From the NCBI GenBank assembly GCA_016716715.1, contig JADJVE010000019.1:27083-91082 (forward strand): a stretch of 64,000 nucleotides of DNA, read 5' to 3'. This stretch comes from Acidobacteriota bacterium (GTDB lineage: Bacteria > Acidobacteriota > Thermoanaerobaculia > UBA5066). Position numbers and translations under genes: made by a program. This document shows positions 20,464-40,479 of the stretch, one piece after another (within the stretch, counting starts at the first letter, position 1; each line of letters starts with the position of its first letter). The notes beneath the pieces are model-generated. The model was not told where the DNA came from. It searched no databases and was given only the letters and a program-made list of their open reading frames with translations.

Positions 20464-21293
20464 CAGGCCGCTCCCGTCCGGCGCTTCTCGCGCTTGAGCA
20501 GGATGAGGACGAGCCCGGCGACGGCGGCGATCGTGAGGACGGCGCCGCCGCGCAGGAAGTTGCGCACGGTGGCGGTGTAGCGGCCCACCTTCGGGTCGTA
20601 GTGGTAGCAGAGGAGGAGGAGCTGGTCGACGACGCTGCCGAGCTTCTCCTCGGACGCCTCGATGAGGCCGAGGCGGAGGTCCTTCGCCGGGTATTCGATG
20701 CCGAAGAAGTAGCGCGCGATGCGGCCCTGGGGCGTCAGAACGAGGACGCCGGTCGCGTGCGCGAACTGCTTCTGCTCGGCGTCCCACACGTACCGGAAGC
20801 CGACGGCCTTCGTGAGCGCGTCGACGGACGCCTTGTCGCCCGTGAGGAAGTGCCAGCCCTCCGCGCCGCCCTTGCGGCCGTACTGGCGCATGACCGGACC
20901 CTTCTTCACCGACGCCATCTCCGACGTCTCGCGCGGGTCGAAGCTGACGGAGAGGACGTCGAATTCGGTTCCGACGCTCATGCGCAGCGCGCGCAGGCTG
21001 CGCACGAGGCCGTCGGTCGTCATCCCGCAGAGCATCGGGCAGTCGAAGTAGACGAGGGAGAGGACGACGGGCTTCTTCCCGAGGTAGTCGCGCAGGTGGA
21101 CGGTCTTGCCCGCCTCGTCGCGGAACGCGAGATCCAGCGGTACGAGGTCGCCGATCTTCTGGTCGAAGCCGATGTCCTTCACGGGCGGAGCCGGCAGCGG
21201 CGCCTCGGCGGGCGGCGCGCCCGGCGCGGTCGCGCGGAGCTCGCCGGAGAAAGCGAGTGCGAACGCAAGCGCGAACGATGCGGAACGGATCAC
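20463..21293 (-). CDS. SCO1/SenC family copper chaperone (cytochrome oxidase assembly)
   Basis: GTG start preceded by GGAGGTG. Signal/TM segment. Thioredoxin-like body with [10 protein letters not shown]. Confidence 0.8.
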
Positions 21294-21685
21294 TTCTTCA
21301 CCTCCGGCGCGGGCGGCGGCGCCGTGCGGGGCGGGAAGCCCTTCGCGGCGACGATCTCGAGCGCGCGGTCGGCGGGAACGCGGGCGTGCGTGCGGGCCGG
21401 GTCGGCCCAGGCCCAGCTCGAGAGAACGGCGTCCTCCCGGGCGCGGAGGATCTTCAGGTCCTTCTCCGGGTCGTCCTGCAGGAGCACTCCGGCCGGCAGG
21501 CTCCTGACGCGCGCCTCGGCGAGGACGGGAGGCGGCGGGTCCTGGGCGACGAGGCGCTTCTTCTGCCAGATGGCCACGCCCCACATGAGCACGAAGGCCG
21601 CGGCCGTCACGGCGAGCAGCACGATGGCGGACAGGGCGACGGCCTTGAAGTTCAGCTCGGAGTCGACGCCGCGGTTCTCAGCCAT
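21290..21685 (-). CDS. hypothetical membrane protein of the ACIII-cox cluster
   Basis: Start MAENRGVDSELNFKAVALSAIVLLAV. One TM helix. Overlaps its neighbours at both ends. Confidence 0.45.
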   Translation of the reverse strand: MAENRGVDSELNFKAVALSAIVLLAVTAAAFVLMWGVAIWQKKRLVAQDPPPPVLAEARVRSLPAGVLLQDDPEKDLKILRAREDAVLSSWAWADPARTHARVPADRALEIVAAKGFPPRTAPPPAPEVKK

Positions 21686-29252: not shown

Positions 29253-30965
29253 GTGCCGTCGTCTCCGACACGCGCGCGTCTCGCGGCCCCGTTCGCCGTT
29301 TTCGCGCTCGTCTTCGCATTGCGCGGGGCCGCGCTCGCCTCGCTCCTCGCGACGCCGCTCTCCTCGTGGCACCTCTGGACGGAGACGGACGAACACGCCT
29401 ACGTCGAATGGTCGGCGCGCCTCGCGGCCGGGAACTGGGCCGACGTGCCGGCCTACCGCGCGTACTTCAACTGGCAGAGGGAGTACGGTCCGCCGGAAAC
29501 CTGGGAGCGCTGGTACCAGAAGAACGCCTACTACGCCGGGCCGCTCTACCCCTACGGCCTCGCGGTGCTCCGAAAGCTCTTCGGATCGCCGTTTTTGCCC
29601 GCGCGGCTGCTTCAGCTGCTGCTCGCGTGTCTCGCTTCGGCTGCCCTTGCTGCGGCGGTCCAGAGACTCGGAGAAGATTTTCTCAGAAGGGGTAAGAGGG
29701 GAGAAGAGCCGGGTGACGGCGGCCCTTCGCGTGCGGCCGGTTGGTGCGCGGTGGGGGCGGGGGTCCTCTACGGCGCCTACGGACCCCTCGTCTTCCACGA
29801 CTTCTTCCTCTACCGCGACGGCCCCGTCGCGCACCTGTCCACGCTGCTCGTCGCGCTGCCGATGTTCCTCGGCGGCGGCGCCGCGTTCGGACTGGGTCTC
29901 CTCGGCGGCGCGGCCGTCCTCATGAAACAAACGGTCCTGCCCCTCGCCCTCTTCTCTCTTTATTGTCTTTCTTCCCATTCACCTTCTAAGAACTCTTCCG
30001 GCGGCGCGCAGCGCCGCCGCAGAGTCTTTCTCTTCGGTCTCCTCGGTCTCTCTCTCCCCCTCGGCGTCCTCGCGGTGCGAAACATTTCCGCCGGCGTGCC
30101 GCCGCTGACCTTCGACACGCGGCAGGCGATCGGCATCGTGTGGGGAAACGGATTCGGAGCCGACGCGACGACGAACCCCCCGCCCGGCATGAAGGAGATC
30201 CTCGAGGAGGCCGGCGGCTCCACGTCGAAGACCGCGAGGCTCGTCCTCTCGGGCTACAGAGAGCAGCCGCTCGAGCTGCCGAAGCTGTTCCTGAAGAAGT
30301 TCGCGACGTTCTTCAACCGGTTTGAGGTGCCCGACAACGCGAACTGGTACTTCTTCCGGGAGCGCCTGAAGATTCTGAGAGTGCTCCCGGTCTTTCCATG
30401 CCTGCTCGGCATCGGGGGAGTCGGGATTTGCGCGGCGCTGACGCGCCGCGTTCTTCGAAAGGATGAATTCGCCCTCGCGCTCGTCGGGGTCCTTGCGCCT
30501 CTCGCGGCGTGCCTCCTCGTCCAGACGACGTCCCGCTACCGGGTGGGTGCGATCGGGCCGCTGGCCCTCGGCGCCGGCCTCTTTCTTCTCTTCACACTCG
30601 AAGAAATTCGTGCTCGCCGCTGGCGCGCCGTGAGCCTCCTGGCTGGAGCGGCGGCCGTGCTGTCTCTCGTCGCTCTCCTGCCCTCCACGATCTACGACGC
30701 CCGCCACCGTTTTTCCGACACGCTCGTGTACGCGACGCTCGCCGAGGCCGAGCTCGGCCCCGAGGCCGCGGCCGAGGAGATCCGGCGGTACGTGGAGGAG
30801 GGCGGCGACGACCGTGCGTACGACACCGCGGTCCGGGCGTTCCGGTACTGGGTCCGGACGGGAGAGCGCGCGCACGCGCTCGTCGAGCCCTCGGGAATGG
30901 CGCCGCCCGAGCGCCGCCTGAGGGAATTCCCGAAGACGAGCCGGGACGCGCTCTTCGCCCGCTAG
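29253..30965 (+). CDS. polytopic membrane protein, possibly a glycosyltransferase-39/ArnT-like hypothetical
   Basis: GTG start. At least 10 predicted TM segments. Carries three AT-rich repeat copies (29671-29710, 29948-30000, 30582-30612). Confidence 0.45.
   Translation: MPSSPTRARLAAPFAVFALVFALRGAALASLLATPLSSWHLWTETDEHAYVEWSARLAAGNWADVPAYRAYFNWQREYGPPETWERWYQKNAYYAGPLYPYGLAVLRKLFGSPFLPARLLQLLLACLASAALAAAVQRLGEDFLRRGKRGEEPGDGGPSRAAGWCAVGAGVLYGAYGPLVFHDFFLYRDGPVAHLSTLLVALPMFLGGGAAFGLGLLGGAAVLMKQTVLPLALFSLYCLSSHSPSKNSSGGAQRRRRVFLFGLLGLSLPLGVLAVRNISAGVPPLTFDTRQAIGIVWGNGFGADATTNPPPGMKEILEEAGGSTSKTARLVLSGYREQPLELPKLFLKKFATFFNRFEVPDNANWYFFRERLKILRVLPVFPCLLGIGGVGICAALTRRVLRKDEFALALVGVLAPLAACLLVQTTSRYRVGAIGPLALGAGLFLLFTLEEIRARRWRAVSLLAGAAAVLSLVALLPSTIYDARHRFSDTLVYATLAEAELGPEAAAEEIRRYVEEGGDDRAYDTAVRAFRYWVRTGERAHALVEPSGMAPPERRLREFPKTSRDALFAR
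29948..30000 (+). repeat. AT-rich mini-repeat copy inside the membrane protein gene
   Basis: CCTCTTCTCTCTTTATTGTCTTTCTTCCCATTCACCTTCTAAGAACTCTTCCG. Confidence 0.45.
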
Positions 30966-32856: not shown

Positions 32857-33180
32857 GTGGCCGAGCCCAATCCTCGGACAGAGCAGCGTCGGAGCCCCCG
32901 CAGCGACGTGCGGATTCCGGTCGCTCTGCGCCATGAAGGGGAAAGGTTCAAAGGCACGACACTCGTCGTGAACACCCACGGCGCGCTCGTGGGCTCCCAC
33001 CGCAACGTCCCGATGGGCGACATGTTCGAGCTGGAGAACGTGCGGACCCGCGTCTTCTGCCATTGCCGCGTCGTGTTCCACGGCGGGCTCGCCGCCGACG
33101 GCTTCTTCCGCCTCGGCGTCGAGATGCTCGAGGCGCATCCCGCGGTGTGGGGCGCCGACTACTCTCCGGCCGCGTCCTGA
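32857..33180 (+). CDS. PilZ domain protein
   Basis: RRSPRSDVRIP...NTHGALVG resembles the RxxxR...D/NxSxxG c-di-GMP-binding motifs. AAGGAG sits 6 nt upstream of the second GTG. Confidence 0.5.
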   Translation: MAEPNPRTEQRRSPRSDVRIPVALRHEGERFKGTTLVVNTHGALVGSHRNVPMGDMFELENVRTRVFCHCRVVFHGGLAADGFFRLGVEMLEAHPAVWGADYSPAAS

Positions 33181-34271
33181 CCGGTCAGCTTCGCGGCGGC
33201 GGCGCGCGTCTCGGAGTCCTCTTCCCTCTTCCCCTCTTCGCGCAGCGACTTCAGGCTGAGCCCTCCCGCGAGGAGGAAGGCGAGGCCGAGGAGCGTGATC
33301 GGGACGAACGAGAGGGCGTGTGAGACGAGGGCGAACGCGCCGGCCGTGTCCTTGCCGACGCCGTAGAAGCCCGTCAGCGCATAGGCGACCGCCGTGTGGT
33401 AGCCGCCCACGCCGCCCGGCGTCGGGATCGCGAGGCCGAGGATCGCCCACGCGATGACGAAGAACGAGACCGGGTAGGGGAGCGCGAGGTCGAAGGCGAG
33501 AAGCGTCATCCAGACCTGGGTGGCGATGAGACCCCAGAGCGCGAGGGACGCGGCCGCGACGACGGCGACGTCCTTCGCGGTGCCGAGGGCGCCGAGTCCG
33601 TCGAGGAACGACAGCAGGATCGCCTCGATGCGCGCGCCGATCTTTTCGGGCAGCGGGCGGAGGAACGGCTTGACGAAGCGGTCCGTGCGCTCGGGCTTCG
33701 CGGCGAGCAGGCCCAGGACGGCGAGGCCGGCGAGCGTGCCCACGCCGAAGAGGAGCGCAAATTGGCGCAGCGTCGCGAACCGGCCTGCCGCCTCGCCGCC
33801 CATGTTCTGCGGCGCCCAGCCGACCGCGTAGACGACGAAGAGGAACACGCACGTCACGAGGTCGATGAGCCGCTCGAGTGCGATCGACGCGAGGCAGGGC
33901 GCGACGGGAAGCCCGGCGCGGCGCGCGAGGGCGACCGGGCGGACGATCTCGCCGGCGCGGGCGGGGAGCAGCGTCGACGCGGCGAAGCCGATCGACGTCG
34001 CCGAGTTGAGGTCGTACGCCGAGGGGCGCCCGGCCTTCCTGAGGAGCAGCCCCCAGCGCCACGAACGGAAGAGGGGCGTCGCGAAGAGGCCGCACGCCGT
34101 CGCGGCGGCGAGCCAGCCCACGTGCGCGCCCCGGATCGCCTTCCCCACGGCGGCGAAGTCGAGCGTCCGGAGAAAGAGCACGAGGAGGACGGCGGCGAGG
34201 CCGAGCGACACCGCCACCCGCACCGCCTTGCCGCCCTTTTCGGAGGAGCTCACCGCCGGATCGTAGCCCAC
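33159..34271 (-). CDS. flippase-like / lysylphosphatidylglycerol-synthase-TM-region (UPF0104) family membrane protein
   Basis: 370 aa, about 8 TM segments, PTPGGVGGYHTAVAYAL motif. Confidence 0.6.
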   Translation of the reverse strand: MGYDPAVSSSEKGGKAVRVAVSLGLAAVLLVLFLRTLDFAAVGKAIRGAHVGWLAAATACGLFATPLFRSWRWGLLLRKAGRPSAYDLNSATSIGFAASTLLPARAGEIVRPVALARRAGLPVAPCLASIALERLIDLVTCVFLFVVYAVGWAPQNMGGEAAGRFATLRQFALLFGVGTLAGLAVLGLLAAKPERTDRFVKPFLRPLPEKIGARIEAILLSFLDGLGALGTAKDVAVVAAASLALWGLIATQVWMTLLAFDLALPYPVSFFVIAWAILGLAIPTPGGVGGYHTAVAYALTGFYGVGKDTAGAFALVSHALSFVPITLLGLAFLLAGGLSLKSLREEGKREEDSETRAAAAKLTGQDAAGE

Positions 34272-34291: not shown

Positions 34292-35263
34292 GTGCGCGAC
34301 GTGCCGGTCTTCACCGATCCCGTCTTTCTCGAGCACGACACCGGCCCGTACCACCCCGAGAACGCGCGCCGGCTCGAGGCCACGATTCACGCGCTGCGCC
34401 AGGAGGGCCGCCGGTTCGAGTCCCCGCCCGACCCCGAGCGCACGCTGAAGGCGCTCGAGCGCGTTCACGAGCCCGCCTACATCGCGCGCCTGAAGGCCGC
34501 GTGCGACGCGGCGCCGGCGGGCGGCACGGCGCCGTTTTCGCTGTTCGACTGCCCGGACAACCCGATCTCGGCCGCCACGTTCGGGGCCGCGTACCGCGCG
34601 GCGGGGCTCGTCCTCGCGGCCGTGGACGCGGTCCTGGAAAAGAGAGCGCCGGCCGTCTTCGTGGCCGCCCGGCCGCCCGGCCACCACGCGCTCGCCGCGC
34701 AGGCCATGGGCTTCTGTTTCTTCAACACGATCGCCGTCGCGGCGCGCGACCTCGTCGAGCACTCGGGCGCGACGCGCGTTCTCGTGGCCGACTTCGACGT
34801 CCACCACGGGAACGGGACGCAGCAGATTTTCTGGGAGGACGGGCGCGTCGCCTATCTCTCGGTCCACCGGTACCCGTTCTACCCGGGCACGGGCGCCGCG
34901 GACGAGCAGGGGGCGGGCAAGGGGCGGGGCGCGATCGTGAACGTGCCGCAGCGGGCCGGTGCGGGGGACGGAGCCTACGCGGGCGGCTTCTCGGCGGCCC
35001 TCGAGACGCTCGCGGAGAGGTTCAAGCCGGAGTTCGTCCTGATCTCGGCCGGCTTCGACGCCCACGCGGGGGACCCGCTCGGGGGGATGAGCGTCACGAC
35101 GGCGGGTTTTTCCTGGATGACGCGGTCCCTGGAGGAGGTCGCCGAGACCTGGGCCGGCGGGCGGATCGTGTCCGTTCTCGAGGGCGGGTACGACGAGCAG
35201 GCCCTGGGCGAGTCGGCGGTCGCGCACGTGCGCGTTCTCGACCGGACGGGCGGCCTGCCATAG
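34292..35263 (+). CDS. histone deacetylase family protein (AcuC/HDAC-like)
   Basis: PPGHHA, FCFFNT, DFDVHHGNGTQ, and SAGFDAHAGDPLGG motifs. GTG start. Confidence 0.8.
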   Translation: MRDVPVFTDPVFLEHDTGPYHPENARRLEATIHALRQEGRRFESPPDPERTLKALERVHEPAYIARLKAACDAAPAGGTAPFSLFDCPDNPISAATFGAAYRAAGLVLAAVDAVLEKRAPAVFVAARPPGHHALAAQAMGFCFFNTIAVAARDLVEHSGATRVLVADFDVHHGNGTQQIFWEDGRVAYLSVHRYPFYPGTGAADEQGAGKGRGAIVNVPQRAGAGDGAYAGGFSAALETLAERFKPEFVLISAGFDAHAGDPLGGMSVTTAGFSWMTRSLEEVAETWAGGRIVSVLEGGYDEQALGESAVAHVRVLDRTGGLP

Positions 35264-35287
35264 CGGGCCCACGCGTAAATGGCTCAT

Positions 35288-35316
35288 TTGACAGAGCCTT
35301 TCGTGCCCGTTAGACT
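35288..35316 (+). promoter_or_regulatory. sigma-70-like promoter (TTGACA, 17-nt spacer, TAGACT) for the Ig-like repeat gene
   Basis: Seen directly in the relatively AT-rich 130-nt intergenic region upstream of ATG 35395, which itself has GGAGG 6 nt upstream. Confidence 0.4.
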
Positions 35317-35394
35317 CAATACGCGTCAATCTCTCTTCATGATTTGGTGTCCGAGCGCGCCTTGGTATTTCTTCTCGACGCACGGAGGCTCGTG

Positions 35395-37081
35395 ATGATT
35401 CGGAAGGCCCTGATCCTCTCGGCAACCGTCGCGGCTGCGGCCCTGCTCGCAGCGCCCCCTGCGGACGCCCGCAGCGCGGAAGTCCGCCGCGCCCTCGGGT
35501 GCCCCTCGCAAACGCTGGGATCCGTGGATGTTCCGGTCGACGGAGCGACGGTCAGCGGTTACGTGGTCGTCAAGGGATATGCGCTGGACGGCAACCTGGT
35601 GTCCAACGTCGATGTCTACGTTGACGGCACCGACGACGCGAACCGCGTCACGACGGCCGGCGGCGCGAACATCAACCTGCCCCGCCCCGACATCCTCCAG
35701 GCCTTCCCGCAGTACGCCGGCACGCCGGGCCAGAACCCCGGGTGGCTGGCGTCCTTCAAGGCGTCCAACTACTCGAACGGGTCGCACACGATCTACGTCG
35801 GGATCACGGACACGTCCGGCTGCACGTACTTCCTCGCGCCCAAGGCGATCAAGATCGACAACGCGAAGAACCAGGCGCCGTTCGGAAACATGGACTTCCC
35901 GCTCCCGAACAGCTCCGTGTCCGCCAACGGCGTCCTCACGGTCGTGGGCTGGGCGCTCGACGACCGCAAGGTCGACCACGTCGACGTTCTCGTCGACGGG
36001 CTTCTCGAGCGGCAGGCCGTCACGGGCGTCTACCGTGCCGACGTCGCCGCGAACTTCCCGGACAATCCGGCCGCGATCGTCGCGGGCTTCATCCTGAACG
36101 TCGACTCCACGCGTTACCCGAACGGCGTCCACACGGTCAGCGTCCGCGCCGTCGACGACCAGGGCCAGCAGGGCTTCCTCGGGACGTCGCGCGTGCAGGT
36201 TTTCAACAACGCCCCGAACACCGGCCCCTTCGGCGAGGTCGAATTCCCGCTCCTGAACGCAAACTGGTTCGGGAACTGCTTCCCGGTGTCGCCGGGCGGC
36301 CCGTCCGGCGGCCCGACGGACATCGTCGACCCGCGCATCCTCATGTTCGTCAACGGCTGGGCCCTCGAGGCCTCGCTCGAGAACACGGGCGGCGTCTCGG
36401 AAGTGCGCGTCGCGCTGGACGGCGTGCCGATCAAGAACTCGCGCGTGAACTGCCACCGCGAATTTCTCCTCGCGAACGCCCTGATCGACTGCTACGGGTA
36501 CTACCGTCCCGACATCGAGGTCTTGTATCCGGGCTTCGCGCAGGCGCCGAACGTCGGCTTCCAGTTCTTCGTCGACGCCGGCTACCTCCTCACGCAGAAG
36601 GGCTTCCGGGAGGGAGCGCACATCCTCCAGGTGTCGGCCGTCGACAAGCGGAACACCGCCGTCCTTCTGAAGGAAGTTCCGATCACGATGGAGTGCGCGA
36701 CGGGCCAGCTCGACCCGCCGCCGCTCGGCACCATCGACGATCCGACGAACTACAAGTTCATCGGCGGCGTGTTCCCGGTCATCGGCTGGGCGCTCGACCT
36801 CGACGTCGTCGTGAAGGTCCGCATCCTGATCGATGGCGTGGCGCAGGTCGACGCGGTCACGGGCGTGGACCGGGCCGACTACGGCTACGCGAGCCCGGAC
36901 GTCGCGGCCTCGTACCCGTTCTACCCGCAGCGCGCGAACGCGCTTCCGCTTCTACCTCGACACGACGAAGATCTCGAACTCCGAGCACGACCTCCTCATC
37001 GAGGTCACGGACGCGCGGGGCAACGTGCGCTCGGCCGGCACGCGCCGCTTCATCGTGGACAACAACACGCTCGTCCGCTAA
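35395..37081 (+). CDS. secreted protein with four tandem Ig-like/beta-sandwich repeats, with a frameshift near 36935-36950
   Basis: Signal peptide MIRKALILSATVAAAALLAAPPADA. Four repeats of about 100 aa (P(F)G..DFP...V.GWALD...V..V.V.VDG....V.G..RAD). The last repeat finishes in the +1 frame (...RFRFYLDTTKISNSEHDLLIEVTDARGNVRSAGTRRFIVDNNTLVR*, track ORF 36833..37081). Confidence 0.55.
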
Positions 37082-37108
37082 GAACTTCTTCCTGGAAGGT
37101 AAGAGAAC
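37081..37108 (-). repeat. AT-rich mini-repeat copy (intergenic, reverse orientation)
   Basis: AGAACTTCTTCCTGGAAGGTAAGAGAACGG. Its reverse complement is CCGTTCTCTTACCTTCCAGGAAGAAGTTCT. Confidence 0.45.
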
Positions 37109-37110
37109 GG

Positions 37111-37140
37111 GGGCCCGGCGGTTGCCGGGCCTCTTCGTTT
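37111..37140 (+). terminator. rho-independent terminator-like hairpin after the Ig-like gene
   Basis: GGGCCCGGC-GGTT-GCCGGGCCT stem-loop followed by CTTCGTTT. Confidence 0.45.
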
Positions 37141-37156
37141 ATCCTCGCCGCTCGCC

Positions 37157-37663
37157 ATGCAGCCCGCCCAGAAGAAGTTCCTGATCCGGTTCGCGCTCTT
37201 CCTCGTGGGGCTCTACGCTCTCGTCGCGATTCAGCCCGTCAACGACGCCGTCGTGGTGCCGTTCACCGGGTTCCTCGTGAAGGTGTCGGCGGGGATCCTC
37301 CGCGCGGTCGGGGAGCCGGTCGTCACGCGCGGCACGGTGATCCAGTCGGCGCTCTTCGCCGTGGACGTCAAGAACGGCTGCAACGGAATCGAGGCGGCGC
37401 TCCTGCTCCTCGCCGCGATGCTCGCGTTCCCGGCTTCGGCGAAGGCGCGCGCTGCGGGCATCGCGACGGGCCTTCTCGCGATCCAGGTCGTGAACCTCTT
37501 CCGGATCGTGTCGCTGTTCTGGCTCGGCGCGCACCGGCGCGACGTGTTCGACCTGTTCCACGCGGCGATCTGGCAGACGCTGCTCATCCTGCTCGCGGTC
37601 GGGATCTTCCTCGTGTGGGGCCGGAAGCTCCGCGGCGGAGAGGGCGCTGAAGCTCGCGCTTAG
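37157..37663 (+). CDS. short exosortase/archaeosortase-family protein (168 aa)
   Basis: Polytopic. VKNGCNGIEAALLLLAA with the conserved Cys-Asn, and LGAHRRDVFDLFHAAIW with the conserved Arg, match the exosortase core. Confidence 0.45.
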   Translation: MQPAQKKFLIRFALFLVGLYALVAIQPVNDAVVVPFTGFLVKVSAGILRAVGEPVVTRGTVIQSALFAVDVKNGCNGIEAALLLLAAMLAFPASAKARAAGIATGLLAIQVVNLFRIVSLFWLGAHRRDVFDLFHAAIWQTLLILLAVGIFLVWGRKLRGGEGAEARA

Positions 37664-37670
37664 GGCCGCC

Positions 37671-38222
37671 TTGGGTTTCGCGCTCGGGCTCGGCCTCTGG
37701 CACGCCGGGACGCCCGCCTACGACCGCCTGCTCGTCGGGTTCGCCGAGCCTGTCGTGCGCCTGCTCGAGCGGCCGGCCGCGACGCGCCTCTACGCGGAGG
37801 GAACGCGCGTCGTGATCGACCGGGCCGACTTCACGTCCAGATCCGACCGGCCCGCGCTTCCGGCGGACGACCTCACGTTCGACGTCATCATCCTGCTGAC
37901 GCTCGCCGCCGCGACGCCCGGCCTCTTCCAGGACGACGCGATGAAGGGGCTCGGGATCTCGCTTCTCGTGCTCTTCGCCCTGCACGTCGCGGCGCTCGTC
38001 GCCGCCGTCGAGTCGTTCTACGCGATGAAGCTCGGCGCCTGGAGCACGGCGACCTACGGGCCCTTCGCGCGGAACTTCTGGGCCACCGCGTCGCACTTCT
38101 GGCGCCTCGCGGGCTGCTTCGCGGCGCCGTTCGTCCTCTGGTGGCTGCTGATCCGGCCCGCGGGCGCGCCGGAGTCTGGGCGAGTGCGGAAGAAGAGCCG
38201 GTGGAGAAGGCGCGAGAGATGA
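37671..38222 (+). CDS. hypothetical membrane protein downstream of the exosortase-like gene
   Basis: TTG start, 183 aa, 3-4 TM segments. No recognisable motif. Confidence 0.35.
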   Translation: MGFALGLGLWHAGTPAYDRLLVGFAEPVVRLLERPAATRLYAEGTRVVIDRADFTSRSDRPALPADDLTFDVIILLTLAAATPGLFQDDAMKGLGISLLVLFALHVAALVAAVESFYAMKLGAWSTATYGPFARNFWATASHFWRLAGCFAAPFVLWWLLIRPAGAPESGRVRKKSRWRRRER

Positions 38223-38238
38223 CAGCCGGCGAGGGCCG

Positions 38239-38499
38239 CTAGCGATAGACGTCGCGCCGATGGCCGACCTTCACGATCCAGACGACGAGCTCGCGGTCCG
38301 CGATCGAATAGAGGATTCGATAGCGCCCCTGGCGCACCCGGTAGCGGTCTTCGTAGCCAGCGAGCTTTTCGCTCCCGGGCGGACGAGGGTCTCTGGCCAG
38401 CGACGCGATCCTCGTGGCGCTACGCTCCCGGTCCTTTCGGGGGAGAGCCTCGAGCTCCTTCGCCGCGCTTTCCTTGAGGAAGATCCTATAAGAGCCCAC
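38239..38499 (-). CDS. type II toxin, RelE/ParE family
   Basis: 86 aa. ...YRVRQGRYRILYSIADRELVVWIVKVGHRRDVY is the RelE/ParE C-terminal signature. Overlaps the antitoxin by 14 nt. Confidence 0.8.
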   Translation of the reverse strand: MGSYRIFLKESAAKELEALPRKDRERSATRIASLARDPRPPGSEKLAGYEDRYRVRQGRYRILYSIADRELVVWIVKVGHRRDVYR

Positions 38500-38713
38500 G
38501 GCGCTTGAGGTCGCGAACGACCGCCTCGAACGGGATGGCTTTCTCCTTGCGGCGTTCGTCGAAAGCCTCGAGGTCCTCTGCGTCCTCGGAGAGTGCGAGC
38601 CGGACCGATTCGTTCACGACGTCCGAGATCGTCCTCTCGGACGCAGCGGCCTTCAACCGGAGGGCCTTGTGCACGGCAGGCTCGAAGTAGACGGTGGCGC
38701 GCTTCGCACCCAT
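38486..38713 (-). CDS. type II antitoxin (ribbon-helix-helix/CopG-like)
   Basis: 75 aa. N-terminal KRATVYFEPAVHKALRLKAAASERTISDVVNESVRLAL is an RHH fold. Confidence 0.75.
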   Translation of the reverse strand: MGAKRATVYFEPAVHKALRLKAAASERTISDVVNESVRLALSEDAEDLEAFDERRKEKAIPFEAVVRDLKRRGLL

Positions 38714-38761: not shown

Positions 38762-40305
38762 TCGTTCCGTCAGGGCTTGACCGGACCCTTGATGTCGGAC
38801 TTCTTCGCGAGCTGCATCTGCTCGTGGGCCGTCGCGAGCTTCTCGGCGTCGGGGAAAAGGGTGAGCGCCTTCTTGAGCTGGACGTCGTTCTCGAGGCTGG
38901 CGCGGTAACCCGCGTCGCGCCCGAATTTCGCCGTCAGCATCTCCTCGCGGATCGCGTGGTCGACGACGAGGGGATCCTTCTCCTCGGCGTAGATCGCCTT
39001 GGAGCCCTCGCGGGGACCGTCGGGTGCTTCGCGAGGTAGTCGACGGCGAACTCGAAGAAGGGCCGCGCGCGTAGAGCGTCGTCGCGAAGCGCTGAGGGGG
39101 CGCCTTCACGAGGACGTCGGGCGTGATGCCGCCGCCGCCGTAGACCGTCCGGCCCGCCGTCGGTCTTGAAGGAGTCCTTCTTCTGGAGGCGCGTCGCGGG
39201 CGGGGTCTCGTCGGCGTCGCCGCCCTCCTCGTCCTCGGGCGCCAGGTACTCGAGGACGTCCTTTGTAGTCGCGCTGGATGCAGCGGCCGGAGGGGGTGTA
39301 GTACTTCGCCGAGGTGAGCGCCAGGCCGGCGCCGTCGGGGAGGGTGAAGACCGACTGGACGAGTCCCTTGCCCCAGGAAGTCTGGCCCACGATGAGCCCG
39401 CGGTCGTGGTCCTGGATGGCCCCGGCGACGATCTCCGAGGCGGAGGCCGACCCCTTGTTGACGAGGACGACGAGCGGGATGCGGGCCTGGTTGTTCTTGC
39501 CGGGCGCGGCGAAGCTCTGCTCCGAGCGGCGTTCCGGCCGCGGGTCATGACGACCTCTCGTTGCGCGAAAGGAAGAAGTCCGACACGGCGATCGCCTGGT
39601 CGAGCAGGCCGCCCGGGTTTCCGCGCAGGTCGAACACGAGCTTCTTCATCCCCTGCTTCTCGAGCCTGTCCCAGTCCCCGGCCACCTCGGGCGCCGACGT
39701 GTGGGTGAAGTCCTTCAGGCGGATGTAGCCGACCTCGGGCTCGAGCATGAAGGCATAGGAGACGGAGTTCGTCGGGATCTCGGCGCGGGTGACCGTCATC
39801 TGGAGGGGCTCGGTGAGGCCCGGCCGGACGATGGTGATGTTGACCTTCGTGCCCTTCGGGCCCTTGAGCTTCTTGACGACCGCGTCGACGGGGAGGTCGT
39901 CGATTGATTGGCCTTCGACCTTGTCGATGACGTCGCCCGCGCGGATGCCGAGGCGGTCGGCCGGCGAGCCCTCGACCGGCGTGATGACCGTGACCTTCCC
40001 GTTGCGCTTGCTGATGATGATTCCGAGCCCGTAGAACGACCCGCGCTGCTTCTCCTGCATCGACGCTGTATTCCTCGGGCTCGAGGAAGTTCGTGTGCGG
40101 GTCGAGCGTGGAGAGCATCCCCTGGATCGACGAGTAGACGAGCTTGTCGGCGGCCACGTCGTCGGCGTACCAGGCGCGTGCCGTGGCGAGCAGGTCGGAG
40201 TACTCCTTGAACCGGGCTCGAGGCGTCCGAGCCGGCGAACAGCGCCCCCCGCGGCGCTGCCGAGGACGGTGACGGCGAGGAGGAACGGGACGGCGGCGGC
40301 TTCAC
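38762..40305 (-). pseudogene. ctpA: C-terminal processing (tail-specific, S41) peptidase ctpA disrupted by at least five frameshifts
   Basis: Recognisable segments lie in different frames: signal peptide AAAVPFLLAVTVLGSAAGG; FKEYSDLLATARAWYADDVAADKLVYSSIQGMLSTLDPHTNFLEPEEY; PDZ segment GLGIIISKRNGKVTVITPVEGSPADRLGIRAGDVI...FDLRGNPGG; [41 protein letters not shown]; and C-terminus ...KGPVKP*. Several joins sit at homopolymers (AA, CCCCCC). Confidence 0.7.
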
Positions 40306-40479
40306 CCCGGGAGGGGAGGACGGTTGGAAGGCATGGTCACGGAGGCCTTAACCTTACACGGTGAAGGGTTCCTCCCGGACGCAATGAGACTAGCACGCGG
40401 GGCGGTCCGCCGCCTTGAGGGGCTTCGACAGGGGCGAGGACGCGGCGGACCATCGGCCGGCGGAGGAGCACGCAGGATC

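Follow-up and report, generated by a model that had tools for sequence, protein, structure and literature searches.

Exosortases and archaeosortases form a superfamily in which enzymes such as XrtA, serving PEP-CTERM proteins, and ArtA, serving PGF-CTERM proteins, are presumed to apply an intramembrane cysteine chemistry to a tripartite C-terminal signal, with a single enzyme expected to serve several dispersed substrates. A Cys/Arg/His triad has been proposed as the catalytic core of the family (Haft 2023 preprint, doi 10.1101/2023.06.07.544157) and the substrates are usually scattered round the genome, as in PEP-CTERM systems (PMC1569441). The XrtH/IPTL-CTERM system (TIGR04177/TIGR04174) is among the described systems closest to the locus considered here, which lies in a 64,000-nt stretch of DNA (referred to throughout as the window) from an Acidobacteriota bacterium of the Thermoanaerobaculia (GenBank assembly GCA_016716715.1, contig JADJVE010000019.1, positions 27,083 to 91,082). 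Between window positions 35,288 and 38,222 a gene for a secreted Ig-like repeat protein is followed by a gene for a 168-aa exosortase-like protein and then by one for a membrane protein. A preliminary description of this locus had treated the repeat protein and the exosortase as one finding and had regarded the latter as a minimal exosortase-like protein to which no target could be assigned. All of the elements it listed were recovered at the positions given, while the interpretation placed on them was right in part and made too much of the mystery. Our analysis points with good probability to two units, a stand-alone repeat-protein gene and a module made up of xrtH and a partner gene, with XrtH working on (I/V/G)PTL-type tails encoded elsewhere in the genome.

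The preliminary description had proposed hidden Markov models as a check on the 168-aa protein, and by these it belongs to subfamily XrtH; failure against such models, which would have refuted that description, did not occur. With TIGR04177 (exosortase H), whose cutoff is 86 bits, it aligned over model positions 2-154 of 158 at 124.6 bits (E = 3.5e-36), and with the exosortase/archaeosortase signature model, which has a cutoff of 23, it reached 58 bits. The runner-up among the subfamily models, XrtM, gave 62 bits against a cutoff of 125 and XrtA (TIGR03109) 18.9 bits against 208, and the protein lay far under the cutoffs of the models for XrtA, B, F, M, X, Y, ArtE and other archaeosortases. 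Judged by these profile comparisons its membership of the catalogued exosortase H family is unambiguous. Many of its 240 database homologues are named "exosortase H (IPTLxxWG-CTERM-specific)", the form used in JGI annotations, or "exosortase H [Thermoanaerobaculia bacterium]", near-identical proteins of Thermoanaerobaculia genomes being among those so labelled, and the idea of a minimal enzyme with no assignable target can therefore be set aside, since a curated family with a named signal already accounts for it. The score against the XrtA model likewise indicates that PEP-CTERM was the wrong signal to seek.

The Cys/Arg core that had been read from the sequence is present. Cys75, which lies in an NGCNG motif, Arg116 and additionally His135 are invariant in 22 homologues (51-100% identity), as they are in ten that are more distant, and 43 XrtH positions in all are invariant over the 22 sequences. 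When aligned with longer models XrtH spans positions 85-205 of 241 in TIGR02602 and 102-251 of 254 in PF09721 (Exosortase_EpsH), which identifies it at the level of sequence as a short form made up of the catalytic core, corresponding to the C-terminal two-thirds of full-length exosortases. With described XrtH/IPTL-CTERM systems it shares the small size (~160-170 aa), the Cys/Arg/His residues and a partner gene directly downstream, and it differs from them in its lineage, Thermoanaerobaculia, and in that no cognate IPTLxxWG tail turned up in the sequence available. In contrast to XrtA it has no N-terminal helices and a different signal motif, and unlike the XrtA and ArtA systems there is neither an EpsI domain nor an exopolysaccharide locus near the window xrtH.

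The gene following xrtH had been listed as that of a 183-aa membrane protein. The corresponding ORF is present, although its start is more probably a CTG further upstream, and the product is a regular partner of XrtH. In order to follow the gene across relatives we scanned GTDB genomes and JGI metagenomes for xrtH regions (loci with L numbers). Of these, 111 extend 400 nt or more past xrtH, and every one of the 111 has a homologous gene downstream of it. Databases annotate it throughout as "hypothetical protein". Distant relatives align end to end with the family model of the XrtH-associated membrane protein (NF041730, positions 4-182 of 184) at 18-31.6 bits, none of them over the cutoff. L037 reached 23.7 bits, and among the 387 relatives returned by a profile search of 1.8 billion representatives P0446 reached 31.6 and others 28.8 and 21.2. 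As these distant members match over the full length of the model and the gene always follows xrtH, we assign the partner to a divergent branch of this known family, with a homology that is transitive only. It resembles the NF041730 family in its place directly after xrtH, its length of ~170-200 aa and its four-helix topology, and differs in that the homologous start in the window's clade is a near-cognate CTG and that gene callers remove the first helix. The AlphaFold model of the partner (pLDDT 88) consists of four long helices, with a small beta-hairpin located to one side of the membrane, and a search of the PDB with this model retrieved nothing beyond generic helical bundles.

The position of the conserved partner sequence relative to xrtH is constant. 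It begins exactly 8 nt past the xrtH stop in the +1 frame in 40 of 40 loci, and in 14 of these no ATG, GTG or TTG occurs before it. In 36 of 39 loci, however, an NTG codon (CTG in 21, TTG in 10 and GTG in 5) precedes the conserved region by 24 nt, and in the window's clade a GGAG stands before this codon. The TTG at 37671 is peculiar to the window sequence. The partner thus likely starts with M-K-L-A-L-R... at the CTG, overlapping the end of xrtH, and the arrangement points to translational coupling of the two genes. Public gene calls often use a later GTG, with the result that the first helix is lost. For the 14 loci with no standard start a fusion of XrtH and partner by +1 frameshifting was considered, and the conserved NTG provides the simpler account. 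One 292-aa database ORF (P0470) joins the C-terminal third of an XrtH (residues 16-80) to a part of the partner (residues 142-211) and may be a natural fusion, or else a frameshifted or miscalled gene.

With regard to substrates, six-frame scans of the window found no PEP-, PGF- or IPTL-type motif combined with a helix and a basic tail, whether C-terminal or internal, which agrees with the earlier statement that no window protein carries a PEP-CTERM-like sorting signal and extends it to the IPTL type. A six-frame scan for internal combinations of motif, helix and basic cluster returned as its sole helix that of a polytopic membrane protein at 30384, and neither the repeat protein nor the partner matched the Midcut-by-XrtH model (NF033207). 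A C-terminal helix with a basic tail occurs in a single ORF of the window, that of a SCO1/SenC-domain protein (20466-21677, minus strand); it adjoins cytochrome oxidase genes and has no sorting motif, and its tail is probably a plain membrane anchor.

Candidate substrates are seen in relatives. Twelve loci of a sister clade (XrtH ~49% identical) have, upstream of xrtH, a gene whose product is a secreted Ice_binding protein in which He_PIG domains may or may not be present. The stop of this gene lies 28-120 nt from the xrtH match in ten loci and ~0.8 kb (L117) and ~1.2 kb (L084) away in the other two. The proteins of this clade end in a tail of the form ...GPTL(N/G/S/D)xxGLxILxxLLxxAGLFVMN(R/K)xS. 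Two further surface-type repeat proteins, encoded less than 6 kb from xrtH, end in VPTLSFPM... (L033, with DUF11) and IPAFSLLG... (L041, endonuclease and cadherin-like). Like the GPTL tails, these variants score a little under the IPTL_CTERM cutoff. Since the tails found in relatives fit what the family name predicts, the sequences indicate a C-terminal signal of the (I/V/G)PTL type as the target class of this branch of XrtH. The targets in the window organism itself are expected to be IPTL-type proteins encoded outside the 64 kb, and because exosortase substrates are usually scattered their absence from the window says little.

The comparison of relatives also bears on whether the repeat protein belongs to this system. 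Its gene is missing from all 27 loci in which XrtH is less than 55% identical to that of the window, and from L024, while homologues 62% identical to the repeat protein occur at two loci with no xrtH within 4 kb (L123 2703-5683 and L125 2696-5686). In nine relatives we translated the DNA that separates the repeat gene from xrtH and saw no trace of a former tail. The neighbourhood as a whole is syntenic across the window's clade, with the histone-deacetylase-family gene upstream and the S41 peptidase, TatA and TatC genes downstream, and the adjacency of the two genes therefore needs no explanation beyond common descent. On these comparisons the repeat gene and xrtH are separable, independent neighbours and the repeat protein should not be read as an XrtH substrate; the joint finding of the preliminary description comes apart, as each gene occurs without the other.

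At the two loci lacking xrtH the Big_7 gene (named for the domain of the repeat protein) still adjoins a divergently transcribed gene of the LPG_synthase_TM family, the deacetylase gene being missing as well. The same pairing is represented in the window at 33159-34271 and 35395-37081, and the LPG_synthase_TM gene may be a real functional neighbour of the Big_7 gene. In L024 (1-9500) a large Ig-repeat protein and an Rhs/YD-repeat toxin-like element stand upstream of xrtH in place of the deacetylase and repeat-protein genes.

In the two-unit arrangement the repeat gene would be well expressed from its own promoter, with its own 5' untranslated region (5'UTR), ribosome-binding site and hairpin terminator, and its product would be exported by the Sec pathway and carry neither a membrane anchor nor one for the cell wall. 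Arguing by analogy from the family, we expect the Sec-exported targets of XrtH to bear a tripartite C-terminal signal in which an (I/V/G)PTL-type motif is followed by a transmembrane helix and then by a basic tail. The enzyme would recognise this signal within the membrane, cleave at the motif by means of Cys75, Arg116 and His135, and then either free the mature protein or pass it to a surface acceptor. The four-helix partner may act as an obligatory cofactor of XrtH. Transcription of xrtH would probably be low and would proceed by read-through of the hairpin, given that only 22 nt lie between the hairpin and the xrtH ATG.

A number of observations weigh against this account. Our literature search found no functional study of XrtH or exosortase H, the only related paper being a report of an IPTL-CTERM domain on a Methylomirabilis S-layer protein (PMC8671808), and as no XrtH has been studied experimentally the proposed cleavage and transfer are drawn from analogy with ArtA and XrtA. 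Flank scans for tails, which took in 42 loci and then 80 further ones, detected none within 10 kb on either side in ~45 syntenic loci of the window's clade. The GPTL tails of the sister clade had IPTL_CTERM (TIGR04174) as their sole NCBIfam match, and this was sub-threshold (17.5 and 13.6 bits, the cutoff being 20.5), with a synthetic canonical tail reaching 49.5 bits as a positive control. The window partner itself scored 9.3 bits (E = 0.86) with NF041730, for which the cutoff is 35. Finally, the repeat gene lies directly upstream of xrtH in 44 of the 46 loci in which XrtH is at least 55% identical, the gap being just 5-23 nt in about a dozen (for example L031, L070 and L029), and it occupies the site that in the sister clade belongs to the tailed substrate gene, a shared position from which some functional tie is possible.

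The last of these observations would suit a three-gene operon in which the Ig-like protein belongs functionally to the XrtH system, be it as a tail-less substrate, as an acceptor or scaffold, or as an XrtH-dependent surface-layer component. Such an operon would also be in keeping with the short stretch after the hairpin, which leaves no space for a separate xrtH promoter in the window, and with the S-layer and adhesin-type Ig arrays among the matches of the repeat protein in fold searches. We nevertheless consider it unlikely, and a functional link of the repeat protein to the XrtH system in any form equally so. The repeat protein has no C-terminal hydrophobic segment or motif and its homologues are uniform in length, its gene has a conserved promoter and terminator of its own, and the spacers hold nothing that could have encoded a tail. 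Moreover the 62%-identical homologues adjoin the LPG_synthase_TM gene with no xrtH nearby, xrtH and its partner do without the repeat gene in every distant locus and in L024, and the wider synteny allows common descent to account for the adjacency. A form of this idea in which XrtH no longer acts on IPTL-type tails here and instead acts with the tail-less Ig-like protein, either as acceptor or scaffold or by way of a novel non-C-terminal signal, appears very doubtful indeed; if true, no earlier enzyme of the exosortase family would have been linked to a protein without the tripartite C-terminal signal.

The lack of a tailed protein in the 64 kb and in any syntenic flank, together with the damage to neighbouring genes (the frameshifted repeat gene and an S41 peptidase gene in at least four frame segments), might instead mean that XrtH is an orphan in this lineage, its IPTL-type substrates having been lost and the pair either decaying or recruited to another membrane function. 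This is very unlikely in our estimate, as XrtH and partner are intact and constrained, the invariant positions of XrtH include the catalytic residues, the pair is kept in every locus counted, and the usual dispersal of exosortase substrates makes absence from 64 kb a weak argument. It was also considered whether the partner could be a degenerate, catalytically dead paralogue of XrtH with which it forms a pseudo-dimeric enzyme. A profile-profile alignment of the two is collinear, placing helix 1 with helix 1 and a beta-strand loop before helix 2 and bringing the region of partner His113 opposite that of XrtH Arg116, the partner model has long helices and a beta-hairpin, and the two genes are always adjacent. 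However the alignment is not significant (hhalign probability 1.8%, E = 0.028 for a single comparison), the partner matches no exosortase model and there is no solved exosortase structure for a comparison of folds; we regard a paralogue as highly improbable and dropped it as unsupported.

The repeat protein scored 59.4 bits with Pfam Big_7 (PF17957) against a cutoff of 24.1. Four Ig-like repeats of about 100 aa had been described; there are indeed four homologous Big_7 domains, but they are longer, at 121, 116, 165 and 122 aa, with pairwise identities of 25-37% (E 2e-5 to 2.5e-18). The AlphaFold model shows four beta-sandwich domains (mean pLDDT 80) preceded by a low-confidence N-terminus which corresponds to the signal-peptide region. 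By inspection this N-terminus, consisting of MIRK, the sixteen hydrophobic residues ALILSATVAAAALLAA and PPADA ahead of RS at the predicted cleavage point, supports the Sec-like signal peptide noted earlier. The nearest solved structures in the fold search were generic Ig, Fn3 and macroglobulin (MG) arrays, S-layer proteins and adhesins. Homologues are 549-582 aa long, 61-98% identical and end in ...FIVDNNTLVR, and no C-terminal anchor, hydrophobic segment or sorting motif was found in the repeat protein or in these homologues, the conserved C-terminus being the last strand of domain 4. As a string of beta-sandwiches the protein resembles the adhesin, S-layer and macroglobulin arrays among Big_7 proteins, from which it differs in its fixed and highly conserved four-domain layout, its confinement to one clade of Thermoanaerobaculia and its lack of a catalytic or anchoring domain. 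The name "N-acetylmuramoyl-L-alanine amidase" which some homologues bear in JGI is backed by no domain match.

The sigma-70-like promoter and ribosome-binding site recognised in the preliminary description are present and conserved. A site of this kind occurs once in 3.6 kb against 0.1 expected from shuffled sequence, and across 11 relatives the -35 box is invariant, the -10 box reads TA(G/A)ACT, a 5'UTR block just downstream of the promoter (GCGTCAATCTCTC) is kept and the Shine-Dalgarno block (CGGAGGCTCGTGATGA) is invariant, while the flanking non-coding DNA diverges. The frameshift previously seen in the last repeat corresponds to the loss of 2 nt (CG) at ~36939 within a GCGCGC run and affects domain 4. 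The frame is intact in every relative examined, and dinucleotide runs are prone to this type of error; the deletion reflects either an error of sequencing or assembly or an inactivation of recent date. A programmed frameshift was ruled out, since all relatives are in frame and the change amounts to no more than 2 nt missing from a GC dinucleotide run.

The hairpin after the repeat gene, its likely terminator, was likewise confirmed. Its stem has 11 pairs, 9 of them G-C, and is followed by a T-rich tail, and in 14 of the 18 relatives checked the hairpin core GGCCCGGC-loop-GCCGGGCC with a T-run follows the stop of the repeat gene, being missing where the repeat gene and xrtH are only 5-23 nt apart. 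Relatives with long spacers of 180-260 nt (L004, L005, L010, L012, L036 and L048) have a second G+C-rich hairpin in the last ~60 nt before xrtH, then a conserved CTCCGAAGCAAAATCTC(T/C)TATCCT directly before its ATG. The hairpin and this motif, of which the window retains just TTTATCCT (37135-37156), could provide xrtH with a promoter of its own or have a regulatory function. An Rfam search of 35200-38300 gave no match to a regulatory RNA at E<=1. The features of the locus are collected in Table 1.

Table 1 Features of the repeat-protein gene, xrtH and its partner, with the substrate gene of the sister clade for comparison (window positions unless a locus is named; all lengths in aa or nt as given)
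Feature	Position	Strand	Remarks
Sigma-70-type promoter of repeat-protein gene	35288..35316	+	TTGACA, 17-nt spacer, TAGACT; 10/12 matches
Shine-Dalgarno GGAGG	35384..35388	+	6 nt before ATG 35395
Gene for Sec-secreted 4x Big_7 Ig-like protein	35395..37081	+	562 aa if intact; 2-nt deletion here
Signal peptide, residues 1-25	35395..35469	+	Predicted cleavage after A-D-A; judged by eye from translation
Ig-like domain 1, residues 39-159	35509..35871	+	Internal alignment; beta-sandwich in model
Ig-like domain 2, residues 160-275	35872..36219	+	Best Big_7 match; internal alignment; model
Ig-like domain 3, residues 276-440	36220..36714	+	Two insertions, four invariant cysteines; internal alignment; model
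Ig-like domain 4, residues 441-562	36715..37078	+	Two frames in window; internal alignment; model
Frameshift site	36935..36945	+	CG missing from GCGAACGCGCGCTTC relative to L001, L002, L004, L005, L006
G+C-rich hairpin, likely intrinsic, possibly partial, terminator of repeat gene	37109..37134	+	Followed by TCGTTTAT
xrtH, exosortase H, 168 aa	37157..37663	+	~5 transmembrane helices; Cys75, Arg116, His135
Gene for XrtH-associated 4-helix membrane protein	37647..38222	+	Start at CTG 37647 (17-nt overlap with xrtH) or TTG 37671; 183-aa ORF is 37671-38222
GPTL-tailed Ice_binding gene upstream of xrtH	L095 4928-6271		Also L077, L079, L080, L082, L083, L084, L086, L091, L098, L105, L117, L121

The window has a G+C content of 69.7% and its genes are closest to those of metagenome-assembled genomes of Thermoanaerobaculia (Acidobacteriota). 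The top matching contig, DASXVJ010000005.1, encodes an XrtH 98% identical to that of the window and is ~93% identical at the DNA level; the exact window XrtH sequence had no record in the contig index searched. The genes run in the order PilZ, LPG_synthase_TM (minus strand), histone-deacetylase-family enzyme, repeat protein, xrtH and partner, followed by a ParE/ribbon-helix-helix (RHH) toxin-antitoxin pair and an S41 peptidase gene, both on the minus strand, and by TatA and TatC. The ParE toxin and RHH antitoxin genes, between the partner and the S41 gene (38239-38713), are present in L001 and missing from L002, L004 and L005, and thus represent a recent and variable insertion. The S41 (C-terminal processing) peptidase gene (38770-40456) is split over at least four segments whose frames differ and is 62-88% identical to the intact gene of relatives (556-584 aa), compared with ~95% for neighbouring genes; it is either a decaying pseudogene or a poorly assembled stretch. 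Taken together, the frameshift in the repeat gene and the broken S41 gene fit poor local sequence quality or genuine gene decay.

The locus adds no new principle, as XrtH is a catalogued though experimentally uncharacterised family of which the window protein is an ordinary new member. It does draw attention to an acidobacterial branch of partner proteins which falls under the curated cutoff, is labelled hypothetical and is often truncated at the N-terminus, with an NTG start (CTG here) that overlaps xrtH. The Ig-repeat neighbour calls for caution against readings in which it becomes an XrtH substrate. The sister-clade cassette of GPTL-tailed ice-binding-like protein, xrtH and partner is a clean enzyme-substrate pair in cis and could be used for tests of XrtH specificity.

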